Virus record (IMG/VR): IMGVR_UViG_2698536610_000001
Reading direction: 5' to 3' (one strand)
Length of the DNA stretch: 47,772 bases
Source: a virus
Taxonomy: Duplodnaviria; Heunggongvirae; Uroviricota; Caudoviricetes
The position numbers and the translations under genes were made by a program. This document shows positions 15,126 to 39,956 of the stretch, piece after piece (positions within the stretch are counted from its first letter, which is position 1; each line of letters starts with the position of its first letter). Below the pieces are notes generated by a model. The model did not search any database, was not told where the DNA came from, and was given only the letters and a program-made list of their open reading frames with translations.

Positions 15126-15317
15126 AATAAATCCTGTACTTTTGATAGTTGAGAGTAAGTATGAAAGATAGATGAGTACGACCGATCACTTAAAGAACTT
15201 TCCTACTATATTAGGAATAGTCAATAACAGAAAAATTGTCAGTGATGAAGCCAGAAAGGCAATTTAGTCCGTGCACTACAAAGTTTATGTGTTAATGAAT
15301 TAATCAAGGGGGAGGAA

Positions 15318-20205: not shown

Positions 20206-20898
20206 TCAAATCTTATCTAACTCATTATAGGCTTCGATAATAAAAATTCTGATTTTAATAAGGCATGATTCAATGAAAGGAATTACTTCATGGTCATTCC
20301 CATGGAATCTTATTTTTTTCTCTTCGGTAATGACTATGTTTAAAGGTACACCATTACCACTTCTTTGTAATTTCCCATTTTCGAAAGTAAAGTCTTCTAA
20401 TTTTTTGCCATTGATGTGGTTGTTTTTAAAGAGAATTTTTGCTGAGCTTCCTGCTGTGATTAAACCAAAACCATCTACGCTCACACTTAGGTCTTTAACA
20501 GAACTCTCTTCTCTTAAGGGGATTGGTTGTCTGTGCTTTACTTCATTAGTGAGATTACACATCATTTCCAACCAAGATTCGCCAGTGTGATAATCCTGTA
20601 TAGAAGTAAAAATTTTATATAATGGAGAAGATGATGGTGGGTTTATTTTTAGCGTCTTTGAGAAAAATTTATCAATAAACTCTTTTTTTCCGTAAGGGAA
20701 ATATATTTTGGGGCGCTCATCATTACTGCGTGGAGAAATATATTTATCATAGGTATCATTAGCGAGATACTCTAAGGAACTTCGTAAGTTTTCCAAAATA
20801 GCTTTGACTTTTACAGGCTTGATATGCTGTGTCTGTCTCATTATGTCAAGACTTTCTTCAACTTCTTGCAATAAGTCTAACGAGCCTTCTCTAGACAT
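20206..20898 (-). CDS. Hypothetical 230-aa protein in an AT-rich island (moron)
   Basis: Long ORF in strongly AT-rich DNA where chance ORFs are unlikely; opposite to phage late transcription, in the position lambda uses for bor; no motif recognised. Confidence 0.6.
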   Translation of the reverse strand: MSREGSLDLLQEVEESLDIMRQTQHIKPVKVKAILENLRSSLEYLANDTYDKYISPRSNDERPKIYFPYGKKEFIDKFFSKTLKINPPSSSPLYKIFTSIQDYHTGESWLEMMCNLTNEVKHRQPIPLREESSVKDLSVSVDGFGLITAGSSAKILFKNNHINGKKLEDFTFENGKLQRSGNGVPLNIVITEEKKIRFHGNDHEVIPFIESCLIKIRIFIIEAYNELDKI

Positions 20899-22015: not shown

Positions 22016-24115
22016 ATGGGTTTTTCATCAGCCCGAAATTTGGGAAGGGACATATCGGCAGGATTTTCCCCACCACGTCGCATGCCGATTTCGGAGGCTG
22101 TTAAAAAATTCATGCGTGTTCCCAAGGGGGCTGGTAACTCGGTGCCATGGGATCCTGAACTGACACCCTACATCATTGAGCCCATGAACTGCCTGGCATC
22201 GCGTGAATACGATGCGGTGATTTTTGTTGGTCCTGCGCGAACAGGGAAGACCATTGGTCTGATCGATGGATGGATTGTCTATACCATCGTTTGCGATCCT
22301 TCGGACATGCTCGTTGTGCAGATGACCGAAGATAAGGCCCGCGAGCATTCTAAAAAGCGCCTCGACAGAACGTTCAGAAGCAGTGCGGCGGTAAAGAAAA
22401 GAATGAGTCCACGTCGTAACGACAATAATGTCCATGATAAGACGTTCAGGGATGGCTCGTTCCTTAAAATTGGTTGGCCCTCGGTCAACATTATGTCGTC
22501 GTCGGATTACCGGTTTGTCGCCTTAACCGATTACGACCGTTTTCCGGAGAATATCGACAGCGAGGGTGATGGTTTCTCCCTGGCCTCAAAACGTACCACC
22601 ACATTTATGTCCGCCGGGATGACTCTGGTGGAGAGCTCGCCGGGACGTGACATCTGCGACAGCAAATGGCGACGTAAGTCGCCTCATGAAGCGCCACCGA
22701 CGACTGGTATTCTTTCCCTTTACAATCGTGGTGACCGCCGCCGCTGGTACTGGCCATGTCCGCACTGCGGTGAATATTTTCAGCCAGCTATGGATGCCAT
22801 GACCGGCTACCGTAATGAACCGGATCCCTTTAAAGCCAGTGAGGCGGCGTATCTACTTTGCCCGCACTGCAGCGGCATTATCACTGCGGAGAAAAAGCGT
22901 GAGCTCAATAGTGCAGGAGTCTGGTTACGTGAAGGTCAGGTCATTGATCGTAACGGCAACGTTTCCGGTGAACCGCGCCGCTCCCGTATCGCCAGTTTCT
23001 GGATGGAAGGGCCAGCTGCTGCGTATCAGACCTGGGCGCAACTGGTTTACAAATTACTGACTGCAGAACAGGAGTATGAAGCGACAGGAAGCGAAGAAAC
23101 ACTCAGGGCGGTTATCAACACCGACTGGGGATTACCTTATCTTCCTCGTGCCAGCATGGAGCAACGAAAAAGTGAACTGCTTGAGCAGCGGGCAGAGCCA
23201 GTTCCTTCCCGCAGTGTTCCGGATGGCGTTAATTTCCTTGTGGCGACAGTGGATGTGCAGGCGGGACGTCATCGCCGTTTTGTGGTTCAGGTAACGGGCT
23301 ATGGCAGCCGTGGCGAACGCTGGATTATTGATCGTTACAACATCACGCAGTCATTGCGCAGTGACTGCGACGGGGAGAGCCAGCGAATTGATCCGGCCAG
23401 CTATCCGGAAGACTGGGATGTCCTGCTGACGGATGTTTTTCATAAAAGCTGGCCGCTGGCCTCCGATCCTTCTCAACAAATGCGACTGATGGCAATGGCG
23501 GTGGATTCCGGCGGTGAAGACGGGGTCACTGATAATGCCTATAAATTCTGGCGTCGTTGCCGTCGTGATGGCCTTGGTAAACGTATTTACCTGTTTAAGG
23601 GCGACAGCATCCGTCGCGCAAAACTGATCAGCCGTACATTCCCTGATAACACCGGACGAACGGGCCGCCGGGCGCAGGCCGCAGGTGATGTGCCGCTCTG
23701 GCTTCTTCAGACGGATGCCCTGAAAGACCGGGTGAATAACGCGTTATGGCGTGACTCGCCAGGTCCAGGCTATGTGCATTTCCCTGACTGGCTGGGGAGC
23801 TGGTTTTACGACGAACTGACGTATGAAGAGCGGAGCAGTGACGGGAAATGGAGTAAGCCGGGTCGCGGTGCCAACGAAGCTTTTGACCTGATGGTGTATG
23901 CCGAGGCGCTGGTCATTCTGCATGGATACGAAAAGATCCGCTGGCCGGATGCACCGGAGTGGGCGAGCCGGGAAACCTGGCTGGAGTGTGTCCCGGACAG
24001 TACCGAACCGTCACCCTCACCGGAGCCGGTATCCACGCCTGTTAAAAAACAAAAACGGAAGAAAACAGTAACTGACGATGTTAACCCCTGGCTGACTTCC
24101 GGAGGATGGTTATGA
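22016..24115 (+). CDS. Terminase large subunit (lambda gpA-like)
   Basis: 699 aa; Walker A-like VGPARTGKT; C-terminal nuclease-like region; lambda gene order. Confidence 0.9.
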   Translation: MGFSSARNLGRDISAGFSPPRRMPISEAVKKFMRVPKGAGNSVPWDPELTPYIIEPMNCLASREYDAVIFVGPARTGKTIGLIDGWIVYTIVCDPSDMLVVQMTEDKAREHSKKRLDRTFRSSAAVKKRMSPRRNDNNVHDKTFRDGSFLKIGWPSVNIMSSSDYRFVALTDYDRFPENIDSEGDGFSLASKRTTTFMSAGMTLVESSPGRDICDSKWRRKSPHEAPPTTGILSLYNRGDRRRWYWPCPHCGEYFQPAMDAMTGYRNEPDPFKASEAAYLLCPHCSGIITAEKKRELNSAGVWLREGQVIDRNGNVSGEPRRSRIASFWMEGPAAAYQTWAQLVYKLLTAEQEYEATGSEETLRAVINTDWGLPYLPRASMEQRKSELLEQRAEPVPSRSVPDGVNFLVATVDVQAGRHRRFVVQVTGYGSRGERWIIDRYNITQSLRSDCDGESQRIDPASYPEDWDVLLTDVFHKSWPLASDPSQQMRLMAMAVDSGGEDGVTDNAYKFWRRCRRDGLGKRIYLFKGDSIRRAKLISRTFPDNTGRTGRRAQAAGDVPLWLLQTDALKDRVNNALWRDSPGPGYVHFPDWLGSWFYDELTYEERSSDGKWSKPGRGANEAFDLMVYAEALVILHGYEKIRWPDAPEWASRETWLECVPDSTEPSPSPEPVSTPVKKQKRKKTVTDDVNPWLTSGGWL

Positions 24116-24324
24116 ATCAGAATGATATTGAAGCCATGATTCAGCGTTATACGGAAGCTGAAATGGCGGTGCTGGACGGAAAATCCGTCACTTTTAATGG
24201 TCAGCAGATGACCATGGAAAACTTATCTGAGATCCGGCAGGGACGGCAGGAGTGGGAGCGCCGCCTTGCGGCTCTGATTACACGACGACGGGGGCATCCC
24301 GGGTACCGGCTGGCGAGGTTCTGA
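24112..24324 (+). CDS. Head-tail joining protein gpW-like
   Basis: About 70 aa; …RRRGHPGY… C-terminus resembles lambda W; overlaps the terminase stop; GGAGGA SD. Confidence 0.7.
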   Translation: MNQNDIEAMIQRYTEAEMAVLDGKSVTFNGQQMTMENLSEIRQGRQEWERRLAALITRRRGHPGYRLARF

Positions 24325-25832
24325 TGGCAATTCTTGATGATGTGATTGGCGTTTTTTCACCAGGATGGAAAGCGGCAAGGCTGCGTTCCCGTGCGGTGAT
24401 TCAGGCTTATGAGGCCGTAAAAACGACGCGGACACACAAAGCCCGACGGGAGAACCGAACTGCCGACCAGTTAAGCCAGTACGGGGCCGTGTCGTTACGT
24501 GAGCAGGCCCGTTACCTTGATAACAACCACGATCTGGTCATTGGTGTATTTGACAAGCTGGAAGAACGGGTGGTGGGGAAAAACGGGATTATTGTCGAGC
24601 CACATCCGGTATTACGCAATGGGGCCATTGCCCGTGATCTGGCAGCGGAGATACGCACCCGATGGAGTGAATGGTCTGTCAGTCCGGAAGTCACCGGGCA
24701 GTTTACCCGTCCGATGCTGGAACGTCTGATGCTGCGTACCTGGCTGCGCGATGGTGAGGTGTTTGCCCAGATGGTTTCCGGGCGCATAAACAGCTTGACG
24801 CCTTCTGCCGGTGTTCATTTCTGGCTGGAGGCGCTCGAGCCGGACTTTATTCCCATGACCAGTGATGAGAGCAACAGGCTGAATCAGGGCGTGTTTGTTG
24901 ATGACTGGGGGCGTCCCGAAAAATATCTGGTGTATAAAAGCCGTCCCGTATCCGGGCGGCAGATGGAAACCAAAGAAGTGGATGCAGAGCGAATGCTGCA
25001 TCTTAAATTTGTTCGCCGTCTGCACCAGATGCGCGGGACGTCTTTGTTGTCCGGTGTGCTGATCCGCCTCAGTGCTCTGAAAGAGTATGAAGATTCTGAG
25101 CTGACTGCAGCAAGGATCGCCGCTGCTCTGGGGATGTACATCCGGAAAGGCGACGGACAGAGCTATGAAACGGATGGTAATGACAGCAAGGAGAATGAAC
25201 GCGAGCTTACCATTCAGCCAGGCATTATTTACGACGATCTGAAACCCGGCGAAGAAATCGGAATGGTGAAGTCGGATCGCCCCAATCCTAACCTTGAAAC
25301 TTTTCGTAATGGTCAGTTGCGTGCCGTGGCTGCGGGCAGTCGTCTGAGTTTTTCCAGTACAGCGCGCAACTATAACGGCACTTACAGCGCCCAGCGTCAG
25401 GAGCTGGTTGAATCTACTGATGGCTACCTGATCCTGCAGGACTGGTTTATTGGTGCCGTCACCCGCCCGATGTACCGTGCCTGGCTGAAACAGGCTGTGG
25501 CATCCGGTGTTATCAGGCTACCCCGCGATCTGGACCGATCTTCACTGTATACCGCGGTGTATTCCGGACCGGTGATGCCGTGGATTGACCCTGTTAAGGA
25601 GGCTGAGGCCTGGAAAATTCAGATTCGTGGTGGAGCGGCGACAGAATCAGACTGGGTACGTGCAGGTGGTCGTAATCCGGATGATGTCAAACGTCGGCGC
25701 AAGGCCGAAATTGATGAAAACCGCAAGCTGGATCTGGTATTTGATACCGATCCGGCCAGTGATAAAGGAGGCAGCAGTGCCGCAACGAAACGACAGGAGC
25801 CGCAGCACACCGACGACCAGTCCGAAGAATAA
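24324..25832 (+). CDS. Portal protein (lambda gpB-like)
   Basis: About 500 aa after the terminase/W genes; ATG overlaps the W stop; start chosen at the internal Met MAILDDV. Confidence 0.85.
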   Translation: MAILDDVIGVFSPGWKAARLRSRAVIQAYEAVKTTRTHKARRENRTADQLSQYGAVSLREQARYLDNNHDLVIGVFDKLEERVVGKNGIIVEPHPVLRNGAIARDLAAEIRTRWSEWSVSPEVTGQFTRPMLERLMLRTWLRDGEVFAQMVSGRINSLTPSAGVHFWLEALEPDFIPMTSDESNRLNQGVFVDDWGRPEKYLVYKSRPVSGRQMETKEVDAERMLHLKFVRRLHQMRGTSLLSGVLIRLSALKEYEDSELTAARIAAALGMYIRKGDGQSYETDGNDSKENERELTIQPGIIYDDLKPGEEIGMVKSDRPNPNLETFRNGQLRAVAAGSRLSFSSTARNYNGTYSAQRQELVESTDGYLILQDWFIGAVTRPMYRAWLKQAVASGVIRLPRDLDRSSLYTAVYSGPVMPWIDPVKEAEAWKIQIRGGAATESDWVRAGGRNPDDVKRRRKAEIDENRKLDLVFDTDPASDKGGSSAATKRQEPQHTDDQSEE

Positions 25833-25845
25833 TTCCTGGTTCAGG

Positions 25846-27804
25846 ATGCAGGCAGGTCACCAGAGTGACGCGGATATTTATATTTATGACGAGATTGGTT
25901 TCTGGGGTGTTACAGCGAAGCAGTTTATCAGTGATCTGAATGCACTGGGCGATATCACCCACATTAATCTCCATATTAATTCACCGGGTGGCGATGTCTT
26001 TGAAGGCATCGCCATTTTTAATGCACTGAAAACACATGGTGCGTCCATTACCGTTTATGTCGACGGTGTGGCGGCGTCAATGGCGTCGGTCATTGCGATG
26101 GTGGGAAACCCGGTCATTATGCCGGAAAACTCCTTCATGATGATTCATAAACCATTTGGCTTTACGGGCGGTGATGCGGAGGACATGCGCACCTATGCCG
26201 ACCTGCTCGATAAAGTTGAGGCGGTTCTGTTACCCGCTTATGCACAGAAAACCGGGAAAACCACCGATGAAATTGCTGCCATGCTGGCGGATGAGACCTG
26301 GATGTCCGGTGCCGAATGTCTGGCACAGGGATTTGCTGATCAGGTGACACCAGCCGTTAAGGCAATGGCATGTATTCAGTCAAAACGTACAGAGGAATTT
26401 AAAAAGATGCCGGAATCCATTCGAAACATGATTACTCTGCCACGCAACAGTGCTCCACGCGTACAGGATGATGAACCTGCAGCCTCCCGGACGCCAGTGC
26501 AGGCAGCAGCACCCGTGGTGGATGAAAACAGTATCCGCGCGCAGGTACTGGCAGAGCAAAAAGCGCGTGTAAACGGTATTAATGATCTGTTTGCCATGTT
26601 TGGCGGGCGTTATCAGATGCTGCAGGCCCAGTGTCTTGCCGATCCTGAATGTTCGCTGGAGCAGGCCCGTGAAAAGCTGTTGAACGAGATGGGGCGCGAG
26701 TCCACGCCATCCAATAAAAATACCCCGGCTCATATTTATGCCGGTAACGGTAATTTTGTGGGGGACGGGATCCGCCAGGCGCTGATGGCGCGTGCCGGAT
26801 TTGAAAAAACCGAACGTGATAATGTCTACAACGGGATGACCCTGCGTGAATATGCCCGTATGTCACTAACTGAACGGGGTATTGGGGTTTCCGGTTATAA
26901 CCCGATGCAGATGGTCGGTGCGGCGTTCACACACAGTACGTCTGACTTCGGTAATATTCTGCTGGATGTTGCGAACAAAGCCATTCTGCAGGGCTGGGAA
27001 GATGCCCCTGAAACCTATGAACAGTGGACGCGGAAAGGTCAGTTGTCTGATTTTAAAATTGCCCATCGTGTGGGTATGGGGGGCTTCAGTGCTCTGCGTC
27101 AGGTGCGTGAAGGGGCGGAATATAAATACGTCACCACCGGAGATAAACAGGCCACTATTGCACTGGCGACCTATGGCGAGCTGTTCAGTATCACCCGTCA
27201 GGCCATTATCAATGATGATCTGAATATGCTGACCGATGTCCCGATGAAACTGGGCCGTGCGGCGAAATCCACTATTGCCGATCTGGTTTATGCCATTCTG
27301 ACGTCTAACCCGAAAATCTCCACAGATAATGTAAGTCTGTTCGATAAAGCGAAACATGCAAACGTACTGGAGAGCGCTGCAATGGACGTGGCATCGCTGG
27401 ATAAAGCCCGCCAGTTGATGCGCGTTCAGAAAGAGGGGGAGCGTCATCTGAATATTCGTCCTGCGTTCGTACTGGTACCGACGGCGATGGAGTCTGTTGC
27501 TAACCAGGTCATTCGCTCCTCAAGTGTCAAGGGGGCTGACATTAACGCCGGTATTATTAACCCGGTGAAAGATTTTGCTACCGTTATTGCAGAGCCTCGT
27601 CTTGATGATAACAGCCAGACCACCTTCTACCTGGCTGCGTCAAAAGGCTCCGATACGATTGAAGTGGCTTATCTCAACGGTGTGGATACGCCATATATTG
27701 ATCAGATGGAGGGCTTCAGTGTGGATGGCGTGACAACGAAAGTGCGTATTGACGCCGGTGTCGCGCCAGTTGATCACCGCGGTCTGGTGAAATGTACGGC
27801 GTAA
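25846..27804 (+). CDS. Prohead protease (ClpP/S49-like) fused to HK97-fold major capsid protein
   Basis: N-terminal protease region (…INSPGGDVFEGIAIFNALKTH…SMASVIAM…) and C-terminal capsid region in one 652-aa frame. Confidence 0.8.
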   Translation: MQAGHQSDADIYIYDEIGFWGVTAKQFISDLNALGDITHINLHINSPGGDVFEGIAIFNALKTHGASITVYVDGVAASMASVIAMVGNPVIMPENSFMMIHKPFGFTGGDAEDMRTYADLLDKVEAVLLPAYAQKTGKTTDEIAAMLADETWMSGAECLAQGFADQVTPAVKAMACIQSKRTEEFKKMPESIRNMITLPRNSAPRVQDDEPAASRTPVQAAAPVVDENSIRAQVLAEQKARVNGINDLFAMFGGRYQMLQAQCLADPECSLEQAREKLLNEMGRESTPSNKNTPAHIYAGNGNFVGDGIRQALMARAGFEKTERDNVYNGMTLREYARMSLTERGIGVSGYNPMQMVGAAFTHSTSDFGNILLDVANKAILQGWEDAPETYEQWTRKGQLSDFKIAHRVGMGGFSALRQVREGAEYKYVTTGDKQATIALATYGELFSITRQAIINDDLNMLTDVPMKLGRAAKSTIADLVYAILTSNPKISTDNVSLFDKAKHANVLESAAMDVASLDKARQLMRVQKEGERHLNIRPAFVLVPTAMESVANQVIRSSSVKGADINAGIINPVKDFATVIAEPRLDDNSQTTFYLAASKGSDTIEVAYLNGVDTPYIDQMEGFSVDGVTTKVRIDAGVAPVDHRGLVKCTA

Positions 27805-27890
27805 ACGTCGCAGACAACAACTCTGATGGCCCGTAAGGGCTTTTTTTGTACCTGAAATCAGCCCCTGAACGGGGCTGTGCGGAGACAGTT

Positions 27891-28214
27891 ATGGCAAAGA
27901 ATTTTGTAGAAGAAGGAAAAACGGTGGCGATTGTTGCCAGTGCAGCCATCAGCAGCGGAGATCTGGTGCAGGTGGGCGATGTTTTTGCGGTGGCGCTGAC
28001 CGATATTCCACAGGGTGAAACAGGCGACGGCATGACCGAAGGTGTGTTTATGCTGCCTAAGCTGAAAACGGATGACATGAAAACGGGTAAGAAGGTTTAT
28101 TTGAAGTCCGGAAAAGTTCAGCTGACTAACAGCGGCTCTGATCCGCTGGTCGGGGTTGTCTGGGCAGATGCCGGAACCAGTGCAGAAGAAGTGCCGGTAA
28201 AACTCAATGTCTGA
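27891..28214 (+). CDS. Small head protein (DUF2190-like, possible decoration protein)
   Basis: 107 aa with GGAGA SD; directly after the capsid gene. Confidence 0.45.
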   Translation: MAKNFVEEGKTVAIVASAAISSGDLVQVGDVFAVALTDIPQGETGDGMTEGVFMLPKLKTDDMKTGKKVYLKSGKVQLTNSGSDPLVGVVWADAGTSAEEVPVKLNV

Positions 28215-28482
28215 TCCCTTTTCCCGGCTGGCAGCGCGTATGGATGCTATCACGGTTAGAAAGATGGGAAAGACAGCCTCGATTAATGATGTCGATATGA
28301 CTGTGATCCCGGGAGAAACACTGGCAGAGCTGAATGCTCTGTCCGGACCTGCGGTCTCTCTGGTGGTGTTTTCTTCGGGATACCGCCCACGGCGCGGGGA
28401 TCGCGTTGTTTATGACGGACAACAATGGACGGTCACACGGCATGAACGTTTTAACGGTAAGCCAATGATCTTTATTGAGTAA
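28207..28482 (+). CDS. Head completion / head-tail connector protein (putative)
   Basis: 91 aa; overlaps the upstream stop; positional assignment only. Confidence 0.45.
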   Translation: MSDPFSRLAARMDAITVRKMGKTASINDVDMTVIPGETLAELNALSGPAVSLVVFSSGYRPRRGDRVVYDGQQWTVTRHERFNGKPMIFIE

Positions 28483-28493: not shown

Positions 28494-29072
28494 ATGAAGG
28501 GGCTTGAGAATGCCATCCGTAATCTGAACAGCCTTGATACCCGTATGGTGCCACAGGCCAGCGCATGGGCGATAAACCGTGTGGCACAGAAAGCGGTCTC
28601 GGTCGCCACCCGGCAGGTTGCCGGGAATACCGTTGCGGGAGATAACCAGGTGAAAGGGATCCCCCTGAAACTGGTACGTCAGCGTGTCCGGGTGTTTAAA
28701 GCCAGTCCGTCAGGAAAAATGACGGCCAGGATCCGCGTTAACCGGGGCAATCTGCCCGCTATTAAGCTGGGGACAGCCCGGGTCAGACTGGCCCGGCGTG
28801 GTGGAAAACTGCAGTACCGTGGCAGTGTGCTGAAGGTGGGTAAATATCTTTTCCGGGATGCGTTTATTCAGCAACTGGCGAATGGTCGCTGGCATGTGAT
28901 GCGGCGTATTGATGGCAAAAATCGTTACCCCATTGATGTGGTGAAAGTCCCGCTGTCCGGACCGCTGACACAGGCATTTGAAGATGCCCGCGACCGCATT
29001 ATTGCTGCGGAAATGCCGAAACAGCTGGGGTATGCACTGAAACAACAACTGAGGTTATGGCTGACCCGATGA
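28494..29072 (+). CDS. Z: Tail completion protein gpZ-like
   Basis: 192 aa, same length and position as lambda Z. Confidence 0.6.
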   Translation: MKGLENAIRNLNSLDTRMVPQASAWAINRVAQKAVSVATRQVAGNTVAGDNQVKGIPLKLVRQRVRVFKASPSGKMTARIRVNRGNLPAIKLGTARVRLARRGGKLQYRGSVLKVGKYLFRDAFIQQLANGRWHVMRRIDGKNRYPIDVVKVPLSGPLTQAFEDARDRIIAAEMPKQLGYALKQQLRLWLTR

Positions 29073-29470
29073 ACCGACATACACAAATCCGCCAGGCCGT
29101 ACTGGCACGCCTTCGGGAACAGTGTGGAGACAGCGCCACGTTTTTTGACGGGCTTCCGGCATTTATTGATGCGCAGGAACTGCCTGCCGTGGCGGTGTGG
29201 CTGAGTGATGCTCAGTACACCGGAAAAATGACGGATGAAGATGACTGGCAGGCTGTTCTGCATATTGCTGTCTTCATCCGGGCACAGGCACCGGATTCAG
29301 AGCTGGATATGTGGATGGAGAGCACCATTTTCCCGGCCCTGAATGATATACCGGCACTTTCCGGACTCATCGACACCCTGATCCCTCTCGGTTTTAACTA
29401 TCAACGTGATAATGAGATGGCCACCTGGGCGATGGCGGAAATCACGTACCAGATCACGTACACGAATTAA
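29069..29470 (+). CDS. U: Tail terminator gpU-like
   Basis: MNRHTQIRQAVLARL…ATFFDGLPAFIDAQELPAVAVWLSDAQYTG… aligns with remembered lambda U. Confidence 0.75.
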   Translation: MNRHTQIRQAVLARLREQCGDSATFFDGLPAFIDAQELPAVAVWLSDAQYTGKMTDEDDWQAVLHIAVFIRAQAPDSELDMWMESTIFPALNDIPALSGLIDTLIPLGFNYQRDNEMATWAMAEITYQITYTN

Positions 29471-29475
29471 AGGAG

Positions 29476-30225
29476 GTGGCAATGACCACACCAAATCCAC
29501 TGGCAAAAACGAAAGGTGCGGGAACGACGTTCTGGATGTACACCGGCAAGGGTGATGCGTTTGCGAACCCTTTATCGGACACTGACTGGCTGCGTCTTGC
29601 GATGGTGAAGGATCTGCAACCTGGCGAAATGACCGCTGATGCAGAAGATGACACTTATCTCGATGATGAAGATGCAGACTGGAAAACGACAACCCAGGGG
29701 CAGAAATCCGTTGGTGATACTTCGGCGACGCTGGCCTGGCGTCCGGGTGACAGCGGGCAGAAAAAACTGGTTCAGTTGTTCGACTCCGGTGAAGTCTGCG
29801 CGTTTCGTATCAAATATCCCAACGGCACTGTTGATGTTTTCCGTGGCTGGCTGAGCTCACTGGGTAAAACCATTGCCTCAAAAGACGTGATGACCCGCAC
29901 AGTGAAAATCAGCGGTGTGGGGCGTCCGTATCTGGCAGAGGAAGGCACTGAAACAGTGAGCGTTACCGGGCTGACGGTGGCACCGGCATCTGCCAGTGTA
30001 AAAGTGGGAGCAACCACCACGCTGACCTTTACAGTAAAACCTGACGGAGCCAGTGACAAAGCGATCAGTGTGCATTCGACAGATCCACAGACTGCCACGG
30101 TGACCCTGAACGGGCTTGTGGCCACGGTGAAAGGCGTGAAGCAGGGCAGTGTCAGCATTGTGGGCATGACTTCTGACGGCGATTTTGTGGCAGTGGCTGC
30201 GGTGGCTGTCAGCGCCGCAGGTTAA
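29476..30225 (+). CDS. V: Major tail protein gpV with C-terminal Ig-like (Big_2) domain
   Basis: …GAGTTFWMYTGKGDAFANPLSDTDWLRLA…RFPNGTVDVFRGW… closely resembles lambda V. Confidence 0.9.
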   Translation: MAMTTPNPLAKTKGAGTTFWMYTGKGDAFANPLSDTDWLRLAMVKDLQPGEMTADAEDDTYLDDEDADWKTTTQGQKSVGDTSATLAWRPGDSGQKKLVQLFDSGEVCAFRIKYPNGTVDVFRGWLSSLGKTIASKDVMTRTVKISGVGRPYLAEEGTETVSVTGLTVAPASASVKVGATTTLTFTVKPDGASDKAISVHSTDPQTATVTLNGLVATVKGVKQGSVSIVGMTSDGDFVAVAAVAVSAAG

Positions 30226-30245
30226 CAGGACGATACTCATCATTT

Positions 30246-30269
30246 GCCCCGGTTATCCGGGGCTTTTTT
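30246..30269 (+). terminator. Intrinsic terminator after V
   Basis: GCCCCGG-TTAT-CCGGGGC followed by TTTTTT. Confidence 0.55.
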
Positions 30270-30285
30270 GCAGGTGGAGAACATG

Positions 30286-30672
30286 ATGTTTCTGAAACAG
30301 GGCACGTTTAATTATGAAAAGCAGTCCGTGGTGCTCAGTGAGCTGTCCGGGCTGCAGAGAATTGAATATCTGGCGTTTGTTCAGCAGCGAACGGCAAAGT
30401 TTGATGCCGAAGAGGGAGAACTGCCGGAGGCTGAACGACAGATTGCTTTTCTGCGGATGGGGATGGATATCAATGCCTGGCTGGTTTCCCGCTCACTGTG
30501 GAATGCGGAACAGTCTCAGGATGTTGAGACGCTTTGCGCATCCGTTATTACAACATGGTCGTATGATGCCCTGGGAGCGGGGGCGGAGATGGTTCTGTCG
30601 CTGAGCGGTATGGGAGTCATTGAGAATGCCGGGGATTTGGAGCATGAGGTGCTGACGCCGGAAAAGTCCTGA
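30286..30672 (+). CDS. G: Tail assembly chaperone gpG
   Basis: MFLKQGTFNYEKQSVVLSELSGLQRIEYLAFV… resembles lambda G; GGAAAAG slippery candidate just before the stop. Confidence 0.85.
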   Translation: MFLKQGTFNYEKQSVVLSELSGLQRIEYLAFVQQRTAKFDAEEGELPEAERQIAFLRMGMDINAWLVSRSLWNAEQSQDVETLCASVITTWSYDALGAGAEMVLSLSGMGVIENAGDLEHEVLTPEKS

Positions 30673-31010
30673 CGCGGGAAATGCAGTTTGTCATGCGGCT
30701 TGCCCGGGAGTTCCGGCGGGCAGACTGGCGGCGGATGCTGTCGGAAATGTCGGCCACTGAGCTTGGTGAGTGGGGCGATTATTTCCGGATGCAGAGCTTC
30801 AGTGATGTGTGGATGGATGCGCAGTTTGCCTCGCTGAAGGCATTGATCGTGAGAATGGTGTCCGGTAGCAGTGATGCTGCGGTGGCTGATTTCAGCCTTT
30901 TACCGGAAGAGAACGGGATACCGGAGCGAACGGACGAAGAACTGATGCATCTTGGGGAAGGTATTTCCGGAGGTGTGCGTTATGGACCAGATAGCCAACC
31001 TGGTCATTGA
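30648..31010 (+). CDS. T: Tail assembly protein T frame, expected to be expressed as a G-T fusion by -1 frameshift
   Basis: The -1 frame is open from 30648 through 31010 and overlaps the G 3' end; first in-frame ATG is at 30681. Confidence 0.65.
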   Translation, partial: GADAGKVLTREMQFVMRLAREFRRADWRRMLSEMSATELGEWGDYFRMQSFSDVWMDAQFASLKALIVRMVSGSSDAAVADFSLLPEENGIPERTDEELMHLGEGISGGVRYGPDSQPGH

Positions 31011-34000
31011 TTTGGGGATTGATGCGGCAGAGTTTAAAAATGAAATTCCCCGTATCAAAAACCTTCTGAATGGTGCAGCCAGCGATGCAGAACGGTCTTC
31101 TGCCCGTATGCAGCGTTTTATGGAGCGTCAGACTCAGGCCGCCCGGCAGACAACGCAGGCAGCTTCTTCGGCTGCAACAGCCGCATCCGTCCATGCGCAG
31201 ACGGTGGAGAAGAACGCACAGGCTCATGAACGCATGGCCCGCGAGGTGGAGAAAACCCGCCAGCGCATGGAGGCACTGAGCCAGAAAATGCGCGAGGAAC
31301 AGGCGCAGGCCATGGCTCTGGCGGAGGCTCAGGATAAAGCGGCTGCTGCGTTTTATCGTCAGATTGACAGTGTGAAACAGGCCAGTGCGGGGCTGCAGGA
31401 ATTACAGCGTATTCAGCAGCAGATCCGACAGGCCAGAAACAGTGGCGGGATTGGTCAGCAGGATTATCTGGCGCTGATTTCTGAGGTTACTGCGAAAACT
31501 CGTGTTCTTACACAGGCTGAGGAAGAGGCTACCCGACAGAAAGTGGCGTTTATCCGTCAGCTTAAAGAGCAGGCAACCCGCCAGAATCTTTCTTCTTCTG
31601 AGTTGCTTCGTGCTAAGGCTGCCCAGCTGGGGGTAAGCAGTGCTGCAGAAGTGTATATCCGCAAAATGGAGCAGGCAGGAAAAGCCACGCATTCGCTGGG
31701 TCTGAAAAGTGCAGCGGCCCGCCAGGAGATAGGCGTTCTGATAGGTGAACTGGCTCGCGGCAATTTAGGTGCGCTGAGGGGATCCGGGATAACGCTGGCT
31801 AACCGTGCCGGATGGATAGACACACTGATGTCACCGAAAGGCATGATGCTGGGCGGGGTTATTGGCGGTATTGCCGCGGCCGTCTATGGTCTGGGTAAAG
31901 CCTGGTATGATGGTCAGAAGGAGGGGGAAGAATTTAACCGCCAGTTGTCGCTGACGGGGCATTATGCCGGAGTCACTGCCGGGCAGCTGTGGACGCTCAG
32001 TCGTGCTATTTCCGGGAATGGTATCACGCAACATGCTGCAGCCGGTGCGCTGGCTCAGGTGGTGGGGAGTGGTGCATTTCGTGGAAACGATATCGGTATG
32101 GTGGCGAGAGCTGCCGCACAGATGGAGCGATCGGTTGGCCAGTCGGTCAGCGATACCATAAATCAGTTTAAGCGGCTGAAGGATGATCCTGTAAATGCCG
32201 CGAAGGCTCTGGACAATGAGCTGCATTTTCTTACTGCCACTCAGCTTGAGCAGATACGCGTCCTTGGGGAACAGGGGCGGTCCAGTGATGCGGCACGGAT
32301 AGCCATGTCTGCACTGGCAGAGGAAACCGGTCGGCGTACTGCGGATATTGATAATAACCTCAATGCGCTGGGCAGTACGCTGAAGTATCTGTCTGATTTA
32401 TGGAGTCGTTTCTGGGATGCGGCCATGAATATTGGTCGTGAAGACTCGCTGGATGAACAGATTTCCGCTTTACAGGAGAAAGTGTCGCGGGCGAAAAGAC
32501 TCCCCTGGACGGCATCATCTTCTCAGGTTGAGTACGATCAGCAGCGTCTTAACGAGCTTCAGGAGAAAAAACGCCAGAAGGATTTGCAGGATGCAAAAGA
32601 GCAGGCAGAGCAGAATTATCAGGAGCAACAGAAACGCCGTAATGCTGAAAATGCTGCACTGAACCGGATGAATGAAACGGAAGCAGCACGACATCAGCGT
32701 GAAATTGCGCGTATTAATTCCATGCAGTACGCCGATCAGGCTGTCAGGGATGCGGCGATACAACGTGAAAATGAACGTTACGAGAAAGCCCTGGCATCCG
32801 GTAAGAAAAAAACACGCGAACCCCGTAATGATGAGGCCACCCGGTTATTGCTGCAGTACAGTCAGCAACAGGCACAGGTGGAAGGACAGATTGCTGCTGC
32901 CAGACAGTCAGCAGGCATTGCCACGGAAAGGATGACAGAAGCGCATAAACAGCTTCTGGCTCTGCAGCAGCGCATCAGCGACCTGGACGGGAAAAAACTG
33001 ACGGCAGATGAAAAGAGTGTGCTGGCCCGTAAAGATGAACTGATTCAGGCACTGACGCTGCTGGATGTAAAACAGCAGGAGCTTCAGAAACAGACGGCAC
33101 TCAACGAGCTGAAGAAAAAAACAATTCAGCTGACCAGTCAACTGGCTGAAGAAGAGCGCGCTCAGCGTCAGCAACATGACCTGGATATCGCCACGGTGGG
33201 TATGGGTGATCAGCAGCGGCAGCGATATCAGGTACAACTGAGTCTTCGCCAGAAATACCAGCAACAGCTGGAGCAGTTGAGGCGGGATAGTGAGCAGAAA
33301 GGAACATATAACACGGATGACTACAGAAAGGCCGAGCAGGCGCTGACGGAGAGCCTGAACCGACAACTGAATGAGAATCGCCGTTACTGGCAACAGCTTG
33401 AAGTTGTGCAGGGTAACTGGAAAAACGGAGTCCTGCGTGCATTTCAGAATTTTACCGTGGATGCAGATAATACGGCAGGAACAGCAGAACAGGTGTTCTC
33501 GTCAGCCTTCAGCAACATGGGAAATGGCCTGGCAACTTTTGTCACTACCGGCAAACTCAATTTCAAATCCTTCACCTCTTCTGTGCTGTCAGATATGGCG
33601 AAAATCCTGGCGCAGGCAACCATGATGAAATCGATAAAAGGGATTGGCAGTGTACTGGGATTTGATCTCAGCAGCCTTTCCCTGAATGCCAATGGGGGGA
33701 TTTATCAGTCTGCTGATTTGAGTCGTTACAGTGGCACGGTGGTTAACCGTCCGACGTTTTTTGCTTTTGCAAAAGGCGCGGGTGTGATGGGGGAAGCGGG
33801 ACCTGAAGCCATTCTGCCACTGCGTCGTGGTGCTGACGGTAAGCTGGGGGTTGTGGCGGATATTGGTGGTTCAGGTATGGCGATGTTTGCCCCGCAGTAC
33901 AACATCGAGATCAATAACGATGGCACGAACGGGCAGATAGGTCCGGCTGCCCTGAAGGTGGTTTATGACCTCGGGAAAAAAGCGGCAGCGGACTTTATGC

Positions 34001-34047
34001 AACAGCAGGCCCGTGATGGTGGTCGGTTAAGTGGAGCATATCGGTAA
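30982..34047 (+). CDS. H: Tail tape-measure protein gpH
   Basis: About 1020 aa, largely helical, ending …INNDGTNGQIGPAALKVVYD… as in lambda H; GGAGGTG SD. Confidence 0.9.
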   Translation: MDQIANLVIDLGIDAAEFKNEIPRIKNLLNGAASDAERSSARMQRFMERQTQAARQTTQAASSAATAASVHAQTVEKNAQAHERMAREVEKTRQRMEALSQKMREEQAQAMALAEAQDKAAAAFYRQIDSVKQASAGLQELQRIQQQIRQARNSGGIGQQDYLALISEVTAKTRVLTQAEEEATRQKVAFIRQLKEQATRQNLSSSELLRAKAAQLGVSSAAEVYIRKMEQAGKATHSLGLKSAAARQEIGVLIGELARGNLGALRGSGITLANRAGWIDTLMSPKGMMLGGVIGGIAAAVYGLGKAWYDGQKEGEEFNRQLSLTGHYAGVTAGQLWTLSRAISGNGITQHAAAGALAQVVGSGAFRGNDIGMVARAAAQMERSVGQSVSDTINQFKRLKDDPVNAAKALDNELHFLTATQLEQIRVLGEQGRSSDAARIAMSALAEETGRRTADIDNNLNALGSTLKYLSDLWSRFWDAAMNIGREDSLDEQISALQEKVSRAKRLPWTASSSQVEYDQQRLNELQEKKRQKDLQDAKEQAEQNYQEQQKRRNAENAALNRMNETEAARHQREIARINSMQYADQAVRDAAIQRENERYEKALASGKKKTREPRNDEATRLLLQYSQQQAQVEGQIAAARQSAGIATERMTEAHKQLLALQQRISDLDGKKLTADEKSVLARKDELIQALTLLDVKQQELQKQTALNELKKKTIQLTSQLAEEERAQRQQHDLDIATVGMGDQQRQRYQVQLSLRQKYQQQLEQLRRDSEQKGTYNTDDYRKAEQALTESLNRQLNENRRYWQQLEVVQGNWKNGVLRAFQNFTVDADNTAGTAEQVFSSAFSNMGNGLATFVTTGKLNFKSFTSSVLSDMAKILAQATMMKSIKGIGSVLGFDLSSLSLNANGGIYQSADLSRYSGTVVNRPTFFAFAKGAGVMGEAGPEAILPLRRGADGKLGVVADIGGSGMAMFAPQYNIEINNDGTNGQIGPAALKVVYDLGKKAAADFMQQQARDGGRLSGAYR

Positions 34048-34376
34048 TGGAGACGTTTCACTGGAAAGTGCGCCCGGATATGAATGTGGTATCAGAGCCG
34101 AAAGTGGTGACAGTGAAGCTGGGCGATGGTTATGAACAGCGTCGTGCGGCGGGACTGAATAACCAGTTGTCGATTTACAGCGTGACGATACGTGTTCGTA
34201 AATGTGAACACCCATCTTTAAAAGCCTTTCTGGAACGGCACGGTGGCGTCCGCGCATTTCAGTGGACGCCACCTTATGACTGGAAGCCGATCAGGGTGGT
34301 TTGTCGTAAATGGTCGGCAAGCGTGGGGGCGCTGTGGGTAACCATAACGGCAGATTTTGAACAGGTCGTGGCATAG
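34047..34376 (+). CDS. M: Minor tail protein gpM
   Basis: 109 aa; METFHWKVRPDMNVVSEPKV…GDGYEQRRAAGLN… resembles lambda M. Confidence 0.9.
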   Translation: METFHWKVRPDMNVVSEPKVVTVKLGDGYEQRRAAGLNNQLSIYSVTIRVRKCEHPSLKAFLERHGGVRAFQWTPPYDWKPIRVVCRKWSASVGALWVTITADFEQVVA

Positions 34377-34385: not shown

Positions 34386-35084
34386 ATGCAGGATATTTCA
34401 CAGGAAACACATCATGAGACGACACGCCTCACTCAGTCAGCCCAGGTGGTGCTCTGGGAAATCGATCTGACAGTGGTCGGTGGTGAACGTTATTTTTTCT
34501 GTAATGAGCAGAACGATAAAGGTGAGCCGGTCACCTGGCAGGGGCGACAGTATCAGGCGTATCCCATTCAGGGGACGGGATTTGAACTGAACGGCAAGGG
34601 CAGTGCTGCCCGTCCGACACTGACGGTTTCTAACCTGCACGGCATGGTCACCGGGATGGCGGAAGACCTGCAGAGTCTGGTCGGAGGAACGGTGGTCCGG
34701 CGTAAGGTTTACGCCCGTTTTCTGGATGCGGTGAACTTCGTCAACGGAAACAGTGACGCCGATCCGGAGCAGGAGGTGATCAGCCGCTGGCGCATCGAGC
34801 AGTGCAGTGAACTGAGCGCGGTGAGTGCCTCTTTTGTACTGTCCACGCCGACGGAAACGGACGGTGCCGTTTTTCCGGGACGTATCATGCTGGCCAACAC
34901 CTGCACCTGGACCTATCGCGGTGATGAGTGCGGTTATCACGGTCCGGCGGTCGCGGATGAATATGATCAGCCGACGTCCGATATCACGAAGGATAAATGC
35001 AGCAAATGCCTGAGCGGCTGTAAGTTTCGCAATAACGTCGGCAACTTTGGCGGCTTCCTTTCCATTAACAAACTTTCGCAGTGA
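34386..35084 (+). CDS. L: Minor tail protein gpL
   Basis: 232 aa; nearly colinear with remembered lambda L (…VVLWEIDLT…GERYFFCNEQN…). Confidence 0.9.
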   Translation: MQDISQETHHETTRLTQSAQVVLWEIDLTVVGGERYFFCNEQNDKGEPVTWQGRQYQAYPIQGTGFELNGKGSAARPTLTVSNLHGMVTGMAEDLQSLVGGTVVRRKVYARFLDAVNFVNGNSDADPEQEVISRWRIEQCSELSAVSASFVLSTPTETDGAVFPGRIMLANTCTWTYRGDECGYHGPAVADEYDQPTSDITKDKCSKCLSGCKFRNNVGNFGGFLSINKLSQ

Positions 35085-35089
35085 ATCCC

Positions 35090-35833
35090 ATGACAGAGAC
35101 AGAATCAGCGATTCTGGCGCACGCCCGGCGATGTGCGCCAGCGGAGTCGTGCGGCTTCGTGGTGAGAACACCGGAGGGGGAAAGATATTTTCCCTGCGTG
35201 AATATATCCGGTGAGCCGGAGGAGTATTTCCGGATGTCGCCGGAGGACTGGCTGAGTGCAGAAATGCAGGGAGAGATTGTGGCGCTGGTCCACAGCCACC
35301 CCGGTGGTCTGCCCTGGCTGAGTGAGGCCGACCGGCGGCTGCAGGTGCAGAGTGATTTGCCGTGGTGGCTGGTCTGCCGGGGGGCGATTCATAAATTCCG
35401 CTGTGTGCCGCATCTCACCGGGCGGCGCTTTGAGCACGGGGTGACGGACTGTTACACGCTGTTCCGGGACGCTTACCATCTGGCGGGAATTGAGATGCCG
35501 GATTTTCATCGCGGGGATGACTGGTGGCGTCACGGTCAGAATCTCTATCTGGATAATCTGGAGGCCACAGGGCTGTATCAGGTGCCGTTGTCATCAGCAC
35601 AACCGGGCGATGTGCTGCTGTGCTGCTTTGGTTCATCGGTGCCGAATCATGCCGCCATTTACTGTGGTGACGGCGAGCTGCTGCACCATATTCCTGAACA
35701 ACTGAGCAAACGAGAGAGATATACCGACAAATGGCAGCGACGCACACACTCCCTCTGGCGTCACCGGGCATGGCGCGCATCTGCCTTTACGGGGATTTAC
35801 AACGATTTGGCCGCCGCATCGATCTGCGTGTGA
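35090..35833 (+). CDS. K: Tail assembly protein gpK (JAB/MPN plus NlpC/P60-like)
   Basis: …VALVHSHPGG… metalloprotease motif and C-terminal Cys/His hydrolase region; start could instead be GTG 35081; 3' end overlaps the I frame. Confidence 0.8.
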   Translation: MTETESAILAHARRCAPAESCGFVVRTPEGERYFPCVNISGEPEEYFRMSPEDWLSAEMQGEIVALVHSHPGGLPWLSEADRRLQVQSDLPWWLVCRGAIHKFRCVPHLTGRRFEHGVTDCYTLFRDAYHLAGIEMPDFHRGDDWWRHGQNLYLDNLEATGLYQVPLSSAQPGDVLLCCFGSSVPNHAAIYCGDGELLHHIPEQLSKRERYTDKWQRRTHSLWRHRAWRASAFTGIYNDLAAASICV

Positions 35834-36372
35834 AAACGGGGGCCGAAGCCATCCGGGCGCTGGCCATGCAGATCCCGGCGTTTCGTCAGAAGCTGAGCGA
35901 CGGCTGGTATCAGGTACGCATTGCCGGGCGTGATACAGGTGAAACGGAATTATCAGCCCGTCTTAATGAACCGCTGGCAAATGGTGCTGTGATCCATATC
36001 GTGCCGCGTCTGGCGGGAGCCAAAAGTGGCGGTGTGTTTCAGGCTGTGCTGGGGGCGGCTGTTATGGCGGTTGCTATATGGATGCCGGGGGTAGGAATTA
36101 TGGCGAGTAATCTGCTGTTTTCTCTCGGTGCCAGTATGACGCTTGGCGGTGTTGCACAGATGCTGGCCCCTAAACCCAAAACCCCCCGCACACAGACAAC
36201 GGATAACGGCAAACAGAACACCTATTTTTCTTCACTGGATAACATGGTTGCCCAGGGCAATGTTCTGCCTGTTCTGTACGGTGAAATGCGCGTGGGGTCA
36301 CGCGTGGTTTCTCAGGAGATCAGCACGGCAGACGAAGGGGATGGTGGTCAGGTTGTGGTGATTGGTCGCTGA
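35731..36372 (+). CDS. I: Tail assembly protein gpI
   Basis: Ubiquitin-like N-terminus and hydrophobic Gly/Ala-rich C-terminus as in lambda I; start uncertain because it overlaps K. Confidence 0.75.
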   Translation: MAATHTLPLASPGMARICLYGDLQRFGRRIDLRVKTGAEAIRALAMQIPAFRQKLSDGWYQVRIAGRDTGETELSARLNEPLANGAVIHIVPRLAGAKSGGVFQAVLGAAVMAVAIWMPGVGIMASNLLFSLGASMTLGGVAQMLAPKPKTPRTQTTDNGKQNTYFSSLDNMVAQGNVLPVLYGEMRVGSRVVSQEISTADEGDGGQVVVIGR

Positions 36373-36432
36373 TGCAAAATGTTTTATGTGAAACCGCCTC
36401 CGGGCGGTTTTATCGTTTATGGAGCATGACGA

Positions 36433-39912: not shown

Positions 39913-39931
39913 ATTTTATAACCCATATACG

Positions 39932-39956
39932 GGCGCCAGAAATGGCGCCTTTTTTA
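39932..39956 (+). terminator. Intrinsic terminator after J
   Basis: GGCGCCA-GAAA-TGGCGCC followed by TTTTTT. Confidence 0.6.

Follow-up and report, generated by a model that had tools for sequence, protein, structure and literature searches.

Does the head region of this viral DNA encode the prohead protease and the major capsid protein as one polypeptide, and does such a fusion mark the head genes as an unusual, separately acquired module? A first-pass annotation had suggested both for a 652-aa open reading frame at positions 25846-27804 of the window (the whole stretch of 47,772 nucleotides analyzed, IMG/VR record IMGVR_UViG_2698536610_000001; all features given below lie on the plus strand). 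The translation of 25846-27804 contains zero internal stops, and an open reading frame scan of the window showed the frame to run uninterrupted from 25585 up to the TAA ending at 27804. Both the protease and the capsid domain fall within this single stop-free frame, so that the two proteins indeed form one polypeptide. The most likely full extent of the gene, based on NCBIfam family NF045540 and the start chosen by PGAP, is 25777-27804, encoding a 675-aa precursor of 73.5 kDa, in which the ATG at 25846 corresponds to Met24 (residue numbers refer to the 675-aa form unless stated otherwise). The gene product scored 982.8 bits against NF045540 (cutoff 475), covering model positions 2-651 of 652, and phrog_133 matched it over its full length (1181.8 bits). 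Neither the open reading frame list nor Pfam revealed a frame or gene between the protease and capsid domains, and a scaffold frame sought between the portal and cement genes was not found; the next gene encodes a 107-aa cement protein. The earlier statement that a separate scaffold gene is absent thus holds. With a full-length family score, a ClpP-fold protease, an HK97-fold capsid domain, a central region and the synteny of NF045540/Gifsy-2-type fusions all present, we consider it very probable that the gene encodes the head shell of an intact Qin-like lambdoid E. coli prophage and belongs, as an ordinary representative, to the Gifsy-2-type "tripartite capsid gene" group. A pseudogene or a remnant of a defective prophage was ruled out by the intact frame, plaque-forming relatives of 99% identity and a complete virion operon.

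A single frame of this kind might also be an artefact, in which a recent inactivating mutation or an error in sequencing or assembly joined adjacent protease and scaffold-capsid genes. ClpP-like head proteases covering only residues ~16-250 are encoded in about 1480 phage records, protease-less scaffold and capsid proteins exist (P0166 and P0223), and the joint between the two parts sits in a low-complexity linker, as such a merger would have it. However, an uninterrupted gene at a coverage of at least 80% is found in 2016 complete E. coli genomes, full-length matches occur in 80 of 50,697 phage records, and plaque-forming or otherwise isolated phages are among the relatives of 99% identity that carry the unbroken gene. 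DNA identity over the full gene is 98.6-99.3% for phi458, mEp460, cdtI, Tritos, Ayreon and HannyBb. Moreover, the fusion is present in Gifsy-2, both domains are carried by 136 of the best 148 representative clusters at 50% identity, down to 34% identity, and a dedicated full-length NCBI model exists. This conservation refutes the artefact in practice, and we give it virtually no credence.

The arrangement had been called known but uncommon. It is already known, as evidenced by the Gifsy-2 precedent, by a family name curated at NCBI and by the thousands of members in databases, and it is rare among phage records; among E. coli prophages, however, it is not uncommon, as the fusion gene is present in 2125 of 5426 complete E. 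coli genomes (about 4 in 10). Given this frequency, the Gifsy-2 precedent and the NCBI annotation rules, the fused arrangement is real yet ordinary. Experiments on this locus or its 99% relatives were not found in the searchable literature.

An AF2 model built on 137 diverse sequences (mean pLDDT 88.4, compared to 35 with 10 close homologues alone) shows a ClpP fold, a disordered linker, a three-helix domain and a capsid fold. The ClpP-fold (S14-like) prohead protease domain comprises residues 21-192 (25837-26352; pLDDT 86-98) and was recognized by Pfam (CLP_protease, PF00574, residues 23-168 in the 652-aa numbering, E 4.6e-36), NCBIfam (NF045542, 217 bits; cutoff 120), a PDB search (ClpP match, E 8e-16) and Foldseek (TM 0.77-0.83 to ClpP structures). 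Conservation of the predicted catalytic residues was counted across 133 homologues with identities as low as about 34%: Ser101 (26077-26079) is present in all 133, His124 (26146-26148) in 132, and the position of Glu173 (26293-26295), which stands where the catalytic Asp is in an alignment to ClpP 1y7o, holds Glu or Asp in 126. Because Glu and not Asp occupies this position, we can only infer the third catalytic residue. The protease had been described as ClpP/S49-like, of which the S14/ClpP part is borne out and the S49 part is not: the S49/SppA model TIGR00706 reached 21.8 bits (cutoff 155), the SppA/SDH matches were likewise weak and well under cutoff, and BLASTP gave no match to the lambda C protein, so that an S49, lambda gpC-like protease was rejected. 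A cellular ATP-dependent ClpP was rejected as well (TIGR00493, 60 bits against a cutoff of 308.6, with other ClpP equivalogs also far below cutoff); the domain shares the ClpP fold and is not a ClpP orthologue.

While the frame reads through as first described, its start was probably placed 69 nt too far downstream, a product of 675 aa being likelier than one of 652 aa. At 25765-25770, a Shine-Dalgarno sequence (AGGAGG) precedes GTG 25777 with a 5-nt spacer; no other in-frame start of the frame is preceded by a 6-nt match, and PGAP picks the same GTG in ATCC 25922. In diverged homologues, the start is kept exactly 23 codons 5' of the Met, despite the differing sequence of the extension. In the AF2 model, Met24 lies inside a predicted β-strand (residues 22-26); the conserved first β-strand reads WFRMQ, with Met24 within it, and the W-[FY]-x-[IM] strand before Met24 is kept in distant homologues. 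Translation most likely starts at GTG 25777 and not at ATG 25846. This start gives rise to the 675-aa product and to a 56-nt, out-of-frame overlap (25777-25832) with the 3' end of the portal gene (24321-25832; stop TAA at 25830-25832), consistent with the overlap that the first-pass annotation had noted for the upstream part of the frame.

Translation from ATG 25846 would instead involve re-initiation 14 nt past the portal stop and yield 652 aa without a portal overlap. ATG is the better start codon, and its location just 3' of the portal stop would favor coupled re-initiation; in addition, it is the start annotated in the GenBank records of mEp460 and cdtI, and the models NF045540 and NF045542 begin only at "ADIYIY". 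On the other hand, the preceding sequence, ttcctggttcagg, lacks a Shine-Dalgarno sequence, while GTG 25777 has AGGAGG at a 5-nt spacing. The residues just 5' of Met24, "NSWFR", are invariant in relatives while adjoining residues vary, and they fit the W-[FY]-x-[IM]-x-A motif of distant homologues that start further upstream; this WF segment forms a confident β-strand in the predicted structure. Furthermore, there is no Met at the equivalent position of Gifsy-2, where, as in 53 of the 133 homologues, the residue is Ile. Since ~40% of the distant homologues are without the WF strand, their start falling directly at the "IxIYG" strand, and since phage records annotate the ATG, we retain initiation at 25846 as an unlikely, though not negligible, option.

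Both starts might also be used, with GTG 25777 giving a 675-aa form with a complete first ClpP-fold β-strand and ATG 25846 a 652-aa form with a part-strand and a weakened or inactive protease. We regard such dual initiation as improbable; if it did occur, the phage could tune the amount of active protease despite the fixed 1:1 ratio of protease to shell polypeptide, and, through the 56-nt overlap, output of the fusion protein would be linked to translation of the portal gene as well. With GTG 25777 as the preferred start, the annotation in phage records that gives 652 aa is probably 23 residues short.

Downstream of the protease domain, residues 193-221 (26353-26439) form a conserved segment with two short helices (pLDDT 76-81) that hardly varies among close relatives; the alignments of stand-alone phage ClpP-like proteases extend to about residue 215-250. 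A hypervariable, indel-rich linker of P, T, Q and A residues follows (residues 222-248, 26440-26520; pLDDT 40-58), which is only 22% identical to its Gifsy-2 counterpart, compared to 87% for the capsid core. The stand-alone scaffold and capsid homologues P0166 and P0223 begin to match at positions 235 and 201 of the 652-aa form, respectively, i.e. at residues 258 and 224 of the 675-aa form. The linker is the probable ancestral gene-fusion joint.

Residues 249-310 (26521-26706) form a three-helix domain (helices 250-273, 280-288 and 294-307; pLDDT 89-97). No Pfam family matched this domain or any part of the entire stretch 193-374. The three-helix domain accompanies the capsid part in NF045541 (match 202-649) and in P0166/P0223, and, by analogy with the HK97 delta domain, it is a candidate internal scaffold; a central region of ~130-180 residues occupies the place of a separate scaffold gene, as is typical of the family. 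The three-helix domain is followed by a low-confidence loop (residues 311-326, with the pLDDT dipping below 50 at residues 320-324) and then helices, together spanning residues 311-374 (26707-26898). We infer that the maturation cleavage site lies within this putative cleavage zone.

The HK97-fold major capsid core, which is Mu gpT-like (PF25209), comprises residues 375-675 (26899-27801; 32.7 kDa). Pfam Phage_capsid_4 (PF25209) matched residues 352-649 in the 652-aa numbering (E 5.4e-55), placing the beginning of the domain at residue 375 of the 675-aa form, and Mu-like_gpT matched as well. In a PDB profile search with the full-length alignment, the top 60 matches were ClpP chains only, and a Foldseek search of the PDB was likewise swamped by ClpP. 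The capsid half was therefore searched on its own and against BFVD, yielding the Mu GpT-domain capsid proteins 8rkc/8rkx in the PDB (E 2.5e-4) and major capsid proteins in BFVD (TM 0.79 and 0.64), HK97-family entries included. The AF2 model contains a spine helix of 29 residues (482-510). Judging from these boundaries, the mature shell protein could have a mass of about 33 kDa if it begins near residue 375, or of about 38 kDa if it begins near residue 327.

A head built from this precursor would carry one protease per shell subunit, unless internal initiation or frameshifting produced an additional, protease-less scaffold-capsid protein and thereby lowered the protease-to-shell ratio below 1:1. 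Lambda offers a precedent, with nu3 (5132-5737) nested in frame in C (4418-5737), and at 1:1 each shell subunit would bring about 40 kDa of cargo into the interior, a heavy load; moreover, the conserved segment after the protease contains an in-frame Met211, which has a weak AGGA 10 nt before it. However, internal in-frame starts have Shine-Dalgarno matches of at most 4-5 nt, and no start is located at the linker/scaffold boundary. The sole slippery-looking stretch, the lysine pair in "EEFKKMP" (codons 209-210), reads "EEFEHMP" in Gifsy-2, so that both a nested internal start and a conserved slippery site were rejected. In addition, no sigma-70-like promoter was found in 25400-28300, and there is thus no sign that the capsid half is transcribed separately. 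A second primary product is therefore very unlikely. Directly 3' of the fusion stop, at 27828-27848, there is a terminator-like hairpin (GGCCC-GTAA-GGGCT, then T7), and a rho-independent terminator is annotated at the equivalent site in the mEp460 record.

Based on these features and on analogy with related systems, we propose that translation, probably beginning at GTG 25777 within the end of the portal gene, yields a single 675-aa precursor. This precursor would consist of the N-terminal ClpP-fold serine protease (Ser101, His124, Glu173), the variable linker, a helical center and the Mu gpT-type capsid domain, with the helical central region standing in for a dedicated scaffolding protein, as the delta domain does in HK97. 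The capsid domains would build the procapsid on the portal and enclose the central and protease parts. After assembly, the protease might remove roughly the first 320-375 residues, and the fragments would leave. DNA would then be packaged, the shell would expand and the 107-aa cement protein from the adjacent gene would bind on the outside. Assembly and self-cleavage at this E. coli locus are predicted from homology.

The genes flanking the fusion gene bear on whether the head module is mosaic. Upstream lies the 503-aa portal protein of the lambda family (PF05136, E 5e-82; TIGR01539, 458 bits), which in BLASTP comparisons shares 64% of its residues with the portal of Gifsy-2 and 21% with lambda gpB. 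Downstream, at 27891-28214, lies the 107-aa head cement/decoration protein (PF09956, Phage_cement_2, E 9e-21; phrog_122, head decoration), the predicted partner of the mature capsid shell. The fused head gene had been thought to contrast with lambda-like tail genes, suggesting a mosaic head module. BLASTP does not support this view as worded: all the virion genes tested, from the small terminase through J, resemble their Gifsy-2 counterparts (40-77% identity), with gene order kept. Relative to lambda, the terminase and portal belong to the same families but are distantly related (24% and 21% identity, respectively), and Z/U/V/M are about 50-55% identical; only from L on, through K, I, J, stf and tfa, does the identity to lambda jump to 80-96%. 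As the block from terS to J is evenly Gifsy-2-like, the head module does not represent an insertion with respect to its tail. These identities place the recent mosaic joint inside the tail module, at gene L.

For annotation, the gene is better named as a major capsid precursor than merely as "Clp protease", "Nu3" or "scaffold", as in many phage records. Beyond correct annotation its significance is small, since protease, scaffold and shell in one chain are a described solution to capsid assembly.

The closest characterized system is the "tripartite capsid gene" of Gifsy-2 (Effantin et al. 2010, Virology 402:355, as cited in PMC12315714). The Gifsy-2 gene product (NC_010393, 22471-24561) is 69% identical to the present protein over 668 aa and likewise arranges a ClpP-like protease, a central region and an HK97-fold capsid, with 87% identity in the capsid core. 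Work on Gifsy-2 reportedly covers the fused genes, capsid and procapsid structures and details of processing. In both phages, the 5' end of the fusion overlaps the portal gene, a 107-aa cement gene comes next (61% identity) and the order is terS, terL, W-like, portal, fusion, cement, FII-like, Z, U, V. The two differ in the linker, which is unrelated in sequence (with indels) and shorter in the E. coli prophage, in the protease half, which is more diverged (62% identity), and in the portal overlap (86 nt in Gifsy-2, 56 nt here). Gifsy-2 is a Salmonella phage, whereas the present locus belongs to an E. coli host and a Qin-like prophage backbone. mEp460, cdtI, phi458, Tritos, Ayreon and HannyBb, as well as the NF045540 members in E. 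coli genomes, carry essentially the same gene, from which nothing of substance differs; only the annotated start (ATG in phage records, GTG with PGAP) and the names (protease, scaffold, Nu3, major head protein) vary.

In HK97, scaffolding is provided by an N-terminal extension (delta domain) of the gp5 capsid protein, which is removed by a packaged protease, and there is no separate scaffold gene. The E. coli fusion resembles it in having a scaffold-type N-terminal extension on an HK97-fold capsid protein, the fold match coming from BFVD. The HK97 protease gp4, in contrast, is herpesvirus-protease-like and encoded by a separate gene, which the present locus does not have, its protease being ClpP-fold and fused. 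Furthermore, the HK97 shell is stabilized by covalent crosslinks (Lys-Asn isopeptide bonds forming a chainmail), while the E. coli locus has an adjoining cement gene, as do lambda and Gifsy-2, which suggests non-covalent stabilization of the shell.

The fusion gene shares with lambda C/Nu3/D/E its position after a gpA-type terminase, W and a lambda-family portal, as well as protease and scaffold in one frame and a small decoration protein that stabilizes a T=7 shell. However, the lambda protease is of the S49 type and not S14-like, the capsid protein is part of the same polypeptide only at the E. coli fusion locus, and the lambda decoration protein belongs to the gpD family, unlike the PF09956 cement protein of the E. 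coli prophage. No BLASTP match at E<=1e-3 linked the fusion and cement proteins to lambda C, Nu3, D, E or FI, and the locus thus lacks the likeness to C, Nu3, D and E of a lambda-type head module.

A ClpP and gpT-like capsid fusion has also been reported in 34% of Paracoccus siphoprophages, where proteins of ~700 aa combine an N-terminal S14 ClpP with a C-terminal Mu gpT-like capsid domain and were read as a gene fusion (PMC6536676). Paracoccus phage Pben1 matches the capsid half of the present protein. The Paracoccus proteins join the same two domains in an alphaproteobacterial host, with only distant similarity of about 25% identity over the capsid half.

The plus-strand frame carrying the protease and capsid regions is free of stops from 25585 to the stop codon ending at 27804, and translation of 25846-27804 yields 652 residues with zero internal stops. 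In the numbering of this form, Pfam assigned CLP_protease to residues 23-168 (E 4.6e-36) and Phage_capsid_4 (PF25209, Mu gpT-related) to residues 352-649 (E 5.4e-55). PHROGs family 133 covered the protein end to end (1182 bits), and NCBIfam NF045540 matched it with 982.8 bits (curated cutoff, 475 bits). The gene is flanked by a lambda-family portal gene (24321-25832) and a gene for a 107-residue cement/decoration protein (27891-28214), and no other gene lies between its protease and capsid domains. With these matches in a single open frame and nothing between the domains, the first-pass annotation correctly recognized a real feature, a protease and major capsid protein made as one polypeptide with no separate scaffold gene between them.

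A stop or frameshift parting the two domains on resequencing would have undone this reading. Conservation of the uninterrupted gene across genomes and phages answers that concern, and a single frame arising as an artefact is ruled out by its conservation in isolated phages, E. coli genomes and representative clusters. In megablast, the gene was 98.6-99.3% identical in the isolated phages phi458, mEp460, cdtI, Tritos, Ayreon, HannyBb and others, and about 77% identical in Stx2 phages. It occurred in 2125 of 5426 complete E. coli genomes, at a coverage of at least 80% in 2016 of the 2125, and RefSeq names it there as the fusion protein. Exhaustive searching of 1.84 billion cluster representatives with HMMER gave 38,823 matches at E ≤ 0.001; protease and capsid parts stood in one protein in 136 of the 148 best new representative clusters, at identities down to 34%. 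Among 50,697 phage records, tblastn matched 1560, chiefly through stand-alone ClpP-like head proteases, and 80 over the full length of the fusion. A ClpP+gpT fusion of ~700 residues has also been described in 34% of Paracoccus siphoprophages (PMC6536676). The arrangement, earlier called known but uncommon, is indeed known, but in E. coli it is very common. In some related proteins the frame is longer still, with the portal (P0033, P0034, P0067 and P0068; 1080-1135 residues) or the terminase (P0006 and P0065) joined to the protease-capsid protein. Such chimeric ORFs probably reflect single-base indels or misassemblies, for instance where the portal and fusion genes briefly overlap, and not genuine larger fusions.

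The ATG at 25846 lies 14 nt past the portal stop and is not preceded by a Shine-Dalgarno sequence. The only strong Shine-Dalgarno sequence ahead of any in-frame start, AGGAGG with a 5-nt spacer, precedes a GTG at 25777, 69 nt upstream. PGAP starts the gene at this GTG, giving 675 residues and an overlap with the portal gene; GenBank phage records start it at the ATG. Relatives with N-terminal extensions of differing sequence all retain a start exactly 23 codons ahead of the Met, and K-x-N-S-W-F-R just before the Met is invariant while the flanking residues vary. In addition, distant fusion homologues with their own start further upstream, such as MSKKSWFHMQAAGRGHADIYIYDEIG, share a W-[FY]-x-[IM]-x-A motif that precedes the "aEIyIYdEIG" strand by ~10 residues. 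At the position of this Met (residue 24 of the 675-residue form), 53 of 133 aligned sequences have Ile and 14 have Met, Gifsy-2 reading SNSWYSIRA there, and a confident structure model shows a β-strand at residues 22-26 (WFRMQ) that pairs with residues 31-36. Based on the conserved spacing and motif, the distant homologues and this β-strand, we consider GTG 25777 the likely translation start. Its product would comprise 675 residues (73.5 kDa) and overlap the portal gene by 56 nt, out of frame; the overlap remarked on earlier therefore stands, while the start then proposed is probably 69 nt short. Two E. coli variants of the fusion protein, P0038 and P0048, contain the N-terminal motif twice (MLKQNAWFRGEPKASLKNNSWFRM...), which suggests a small duplication in the portal-overlapping region.

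A structure model based on 137 sequences reached a mean pLDDT of 88.4; with 10 close sequences as input, pLDDT was 35 and the model could not be used. In 675-residue numbering, used from here on, a disordered N-terminus (residues 1-20) precedes a ClpP fold (residues 21-192), two short conserved helices (residues 193-221), a disordered P/T/Q/A-rich linker (residues 222-248), a confident three-helix domain (residues 249-310), a low-confidence loop (residues 311-326) and the capsid part (residues 327-675) with its 29-residue spine helix (residues 482-510). The ClpP-fold region matched ClpP crystal structures with TM scores of 0.77-0.83 (Foldseek) and the PDB by sequence with an E-value of 8e-16. 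Ser101 is present in 133 of 133 aligned sequences and His124 in 132; Glu173, at the position of the catalytic Asp of ClpP, is Glu in 111 and Asp in 15. The capsid part resembled phage major capsid proteins in BFVD (TM 0.79 and 0.64), HK97-family entries included, and by sequence the solved Mu-GpT-domain capsid proteins 8rkc/8rkx (E 2.5e-4). The linker is only 22% identical to that of Gifsy-2 and has many indels even among close relatives. Stand-alone phage proteases align to about residue 215-250, the stand-alone scaffold-capsid proteins P0166 and P0223 match from residues 258 and 224, and residues 225-672 are matched by NF045541, a sister family whose protease differs. Given these boundaries, the variable linker is probably where a protease gene and a delta-domain-plus-capsid gene were fused in an ancestor.

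By homology, the precursor would assemble on the portal via its capsid domain into a shell enclosing the central region and protease. The protease would then cut off roughly the first 320-375 residues, the shell would mature and the cement protein would bind. A mature chain starting near residue 375, at the beginning of the Pfam capsid domain, would weigh about 33 kDa, and one starting near residue 327 about 38 kDa. A nested internal product is unsupported, as we found no good Shine-Dalgarno sequence at any internal in-frame start of the gene, no promoter-like site in its region and no conserved slippery site, the sole slippery-looking KK pair being absent in Gifsy-2. Between the fusion and cement genes, inside the late operon, lies a terminator-like hairpin (27828-27848; GGCCC-GTAA-GGGCT followed by T7), at the equivalent of which a rho-independent terminator is annotated in mEp460; it may fix the ratio of capsid to downstream expression, or Q antitermination may carry transcription through it.

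The virion genes were compared with lambda by BLASTP (E ≤ 1e-3). Identities were 24% for terL and 21% for the portal, and the fusion, cement, W-like and FII-like proteins had no match at this threshold. Across 28494-34376 identity to lambda was ~25-55% (Z, U and V, 50%, 54% and 55%; G and T, 33% and 38%; H, 25%; M, 55%), compared with 80-96% over 34386-44755 (L, K, I and J, 92%, 96%, 80% and 83%; side tail fibre, 80% and 71% in two segments; tfa, 91%). Since all genes tested from the small terminase gene to J are 40-77% identical to Gifsy-2, the head module belongs with the tail shaft genes in one old, widely distributed Gifsy-2-like block. The proposed contrast between a mosaic head module and a lambda-like tail is not supported in that form; recent lambda-like exchange instead starts at L, inside the tail, the step in identity marking a recombination joint that separates M from L. 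For packaging, the genes remain of the lambda family (ATPase and nuclease domains of gpA; portal, TIGR01539). The side tail fibre (40638-44174; 1178 residues) joins a lambda Stf-like N-terminus to Phage_fiber_2 repeats, a trimerisation domain of the T4 gp34 type and a collar domain, and the 41-42 kb stretch is of unusual composition (GC 0.62, AT skew 0.38).

The window is apparently a complete Qin-like lambdoid prophage, a relative of the defective Qin prophage of K-12 (gene content of 1-21400 and 46489-47772), its left side carrying integrase, excisionase, 823-residue exonuclease, ydfD/dicB, dicA/dicC, ydaT-like, hokD, rem, ydfU, Q and lysis genes; ydfJ, a host MFS transporter gene at the right end, is N-terminally truncated in ATCC 25922 according to RefSeq. 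A low-GC island at 9029-11573 (0.32-0.37, against about 0.5 in the surroundings) encodes a 198-residue protein with the CTD10 domain of ABC-three-component (ABC-3C) systems and, adjoining it, a 574-residue DUF2326 protein with a match to PDC-M68B, a candidate defence family in PADLOC (E 2.8e-41). In related prophages the equivalent site, flanked by the DUF977 gene and hokD, holds a DUF262 or DUF4209 gene, and the island looks like a variable anti-phage defence hotspot. Cargo-like genes also occur in the late region (14601-16277 and 20206-20898), namely a minus-strand lipocalin-family gene and, directly following the Q antiterminator gene, a YbgA-type gene (2-thiouracil desulfurase and DUF1722). 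Ahead of the terminase genes, a low-GC patch (0.33) has a minus-strand ORF of 230 residues that gave no Pfam or PADLOC match.

What this analysis adds to knowledge of the fusion is limited to a probable correction of the start codon, a domain map and a mosaic boundary moved to tail gene L. The closest known system is Salmonella phage Gifsy-2 (NC_010393), whose counterpart gene (22471-24561) encodes a product 69% identical overall to the fusion protein (protease, 62%; three-helix domain, 48%; capsid core, 87%). Its head and tail gene order is that of the window, a cement gene (61% identical) likewise follows, and fusion and portal genes overlap in like manner, by 86 nt compared with 56 nt here. 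Effantin et al. reportedly divided the Gifsy-2 protein into an N-terminal ClpP-like protease, a ~200-residue central domain possibly serving in scaffolding and a C-terminal capsid protein, and are said to have modelled its T=7 capsids with HK97 gp5 and lambda gpD.
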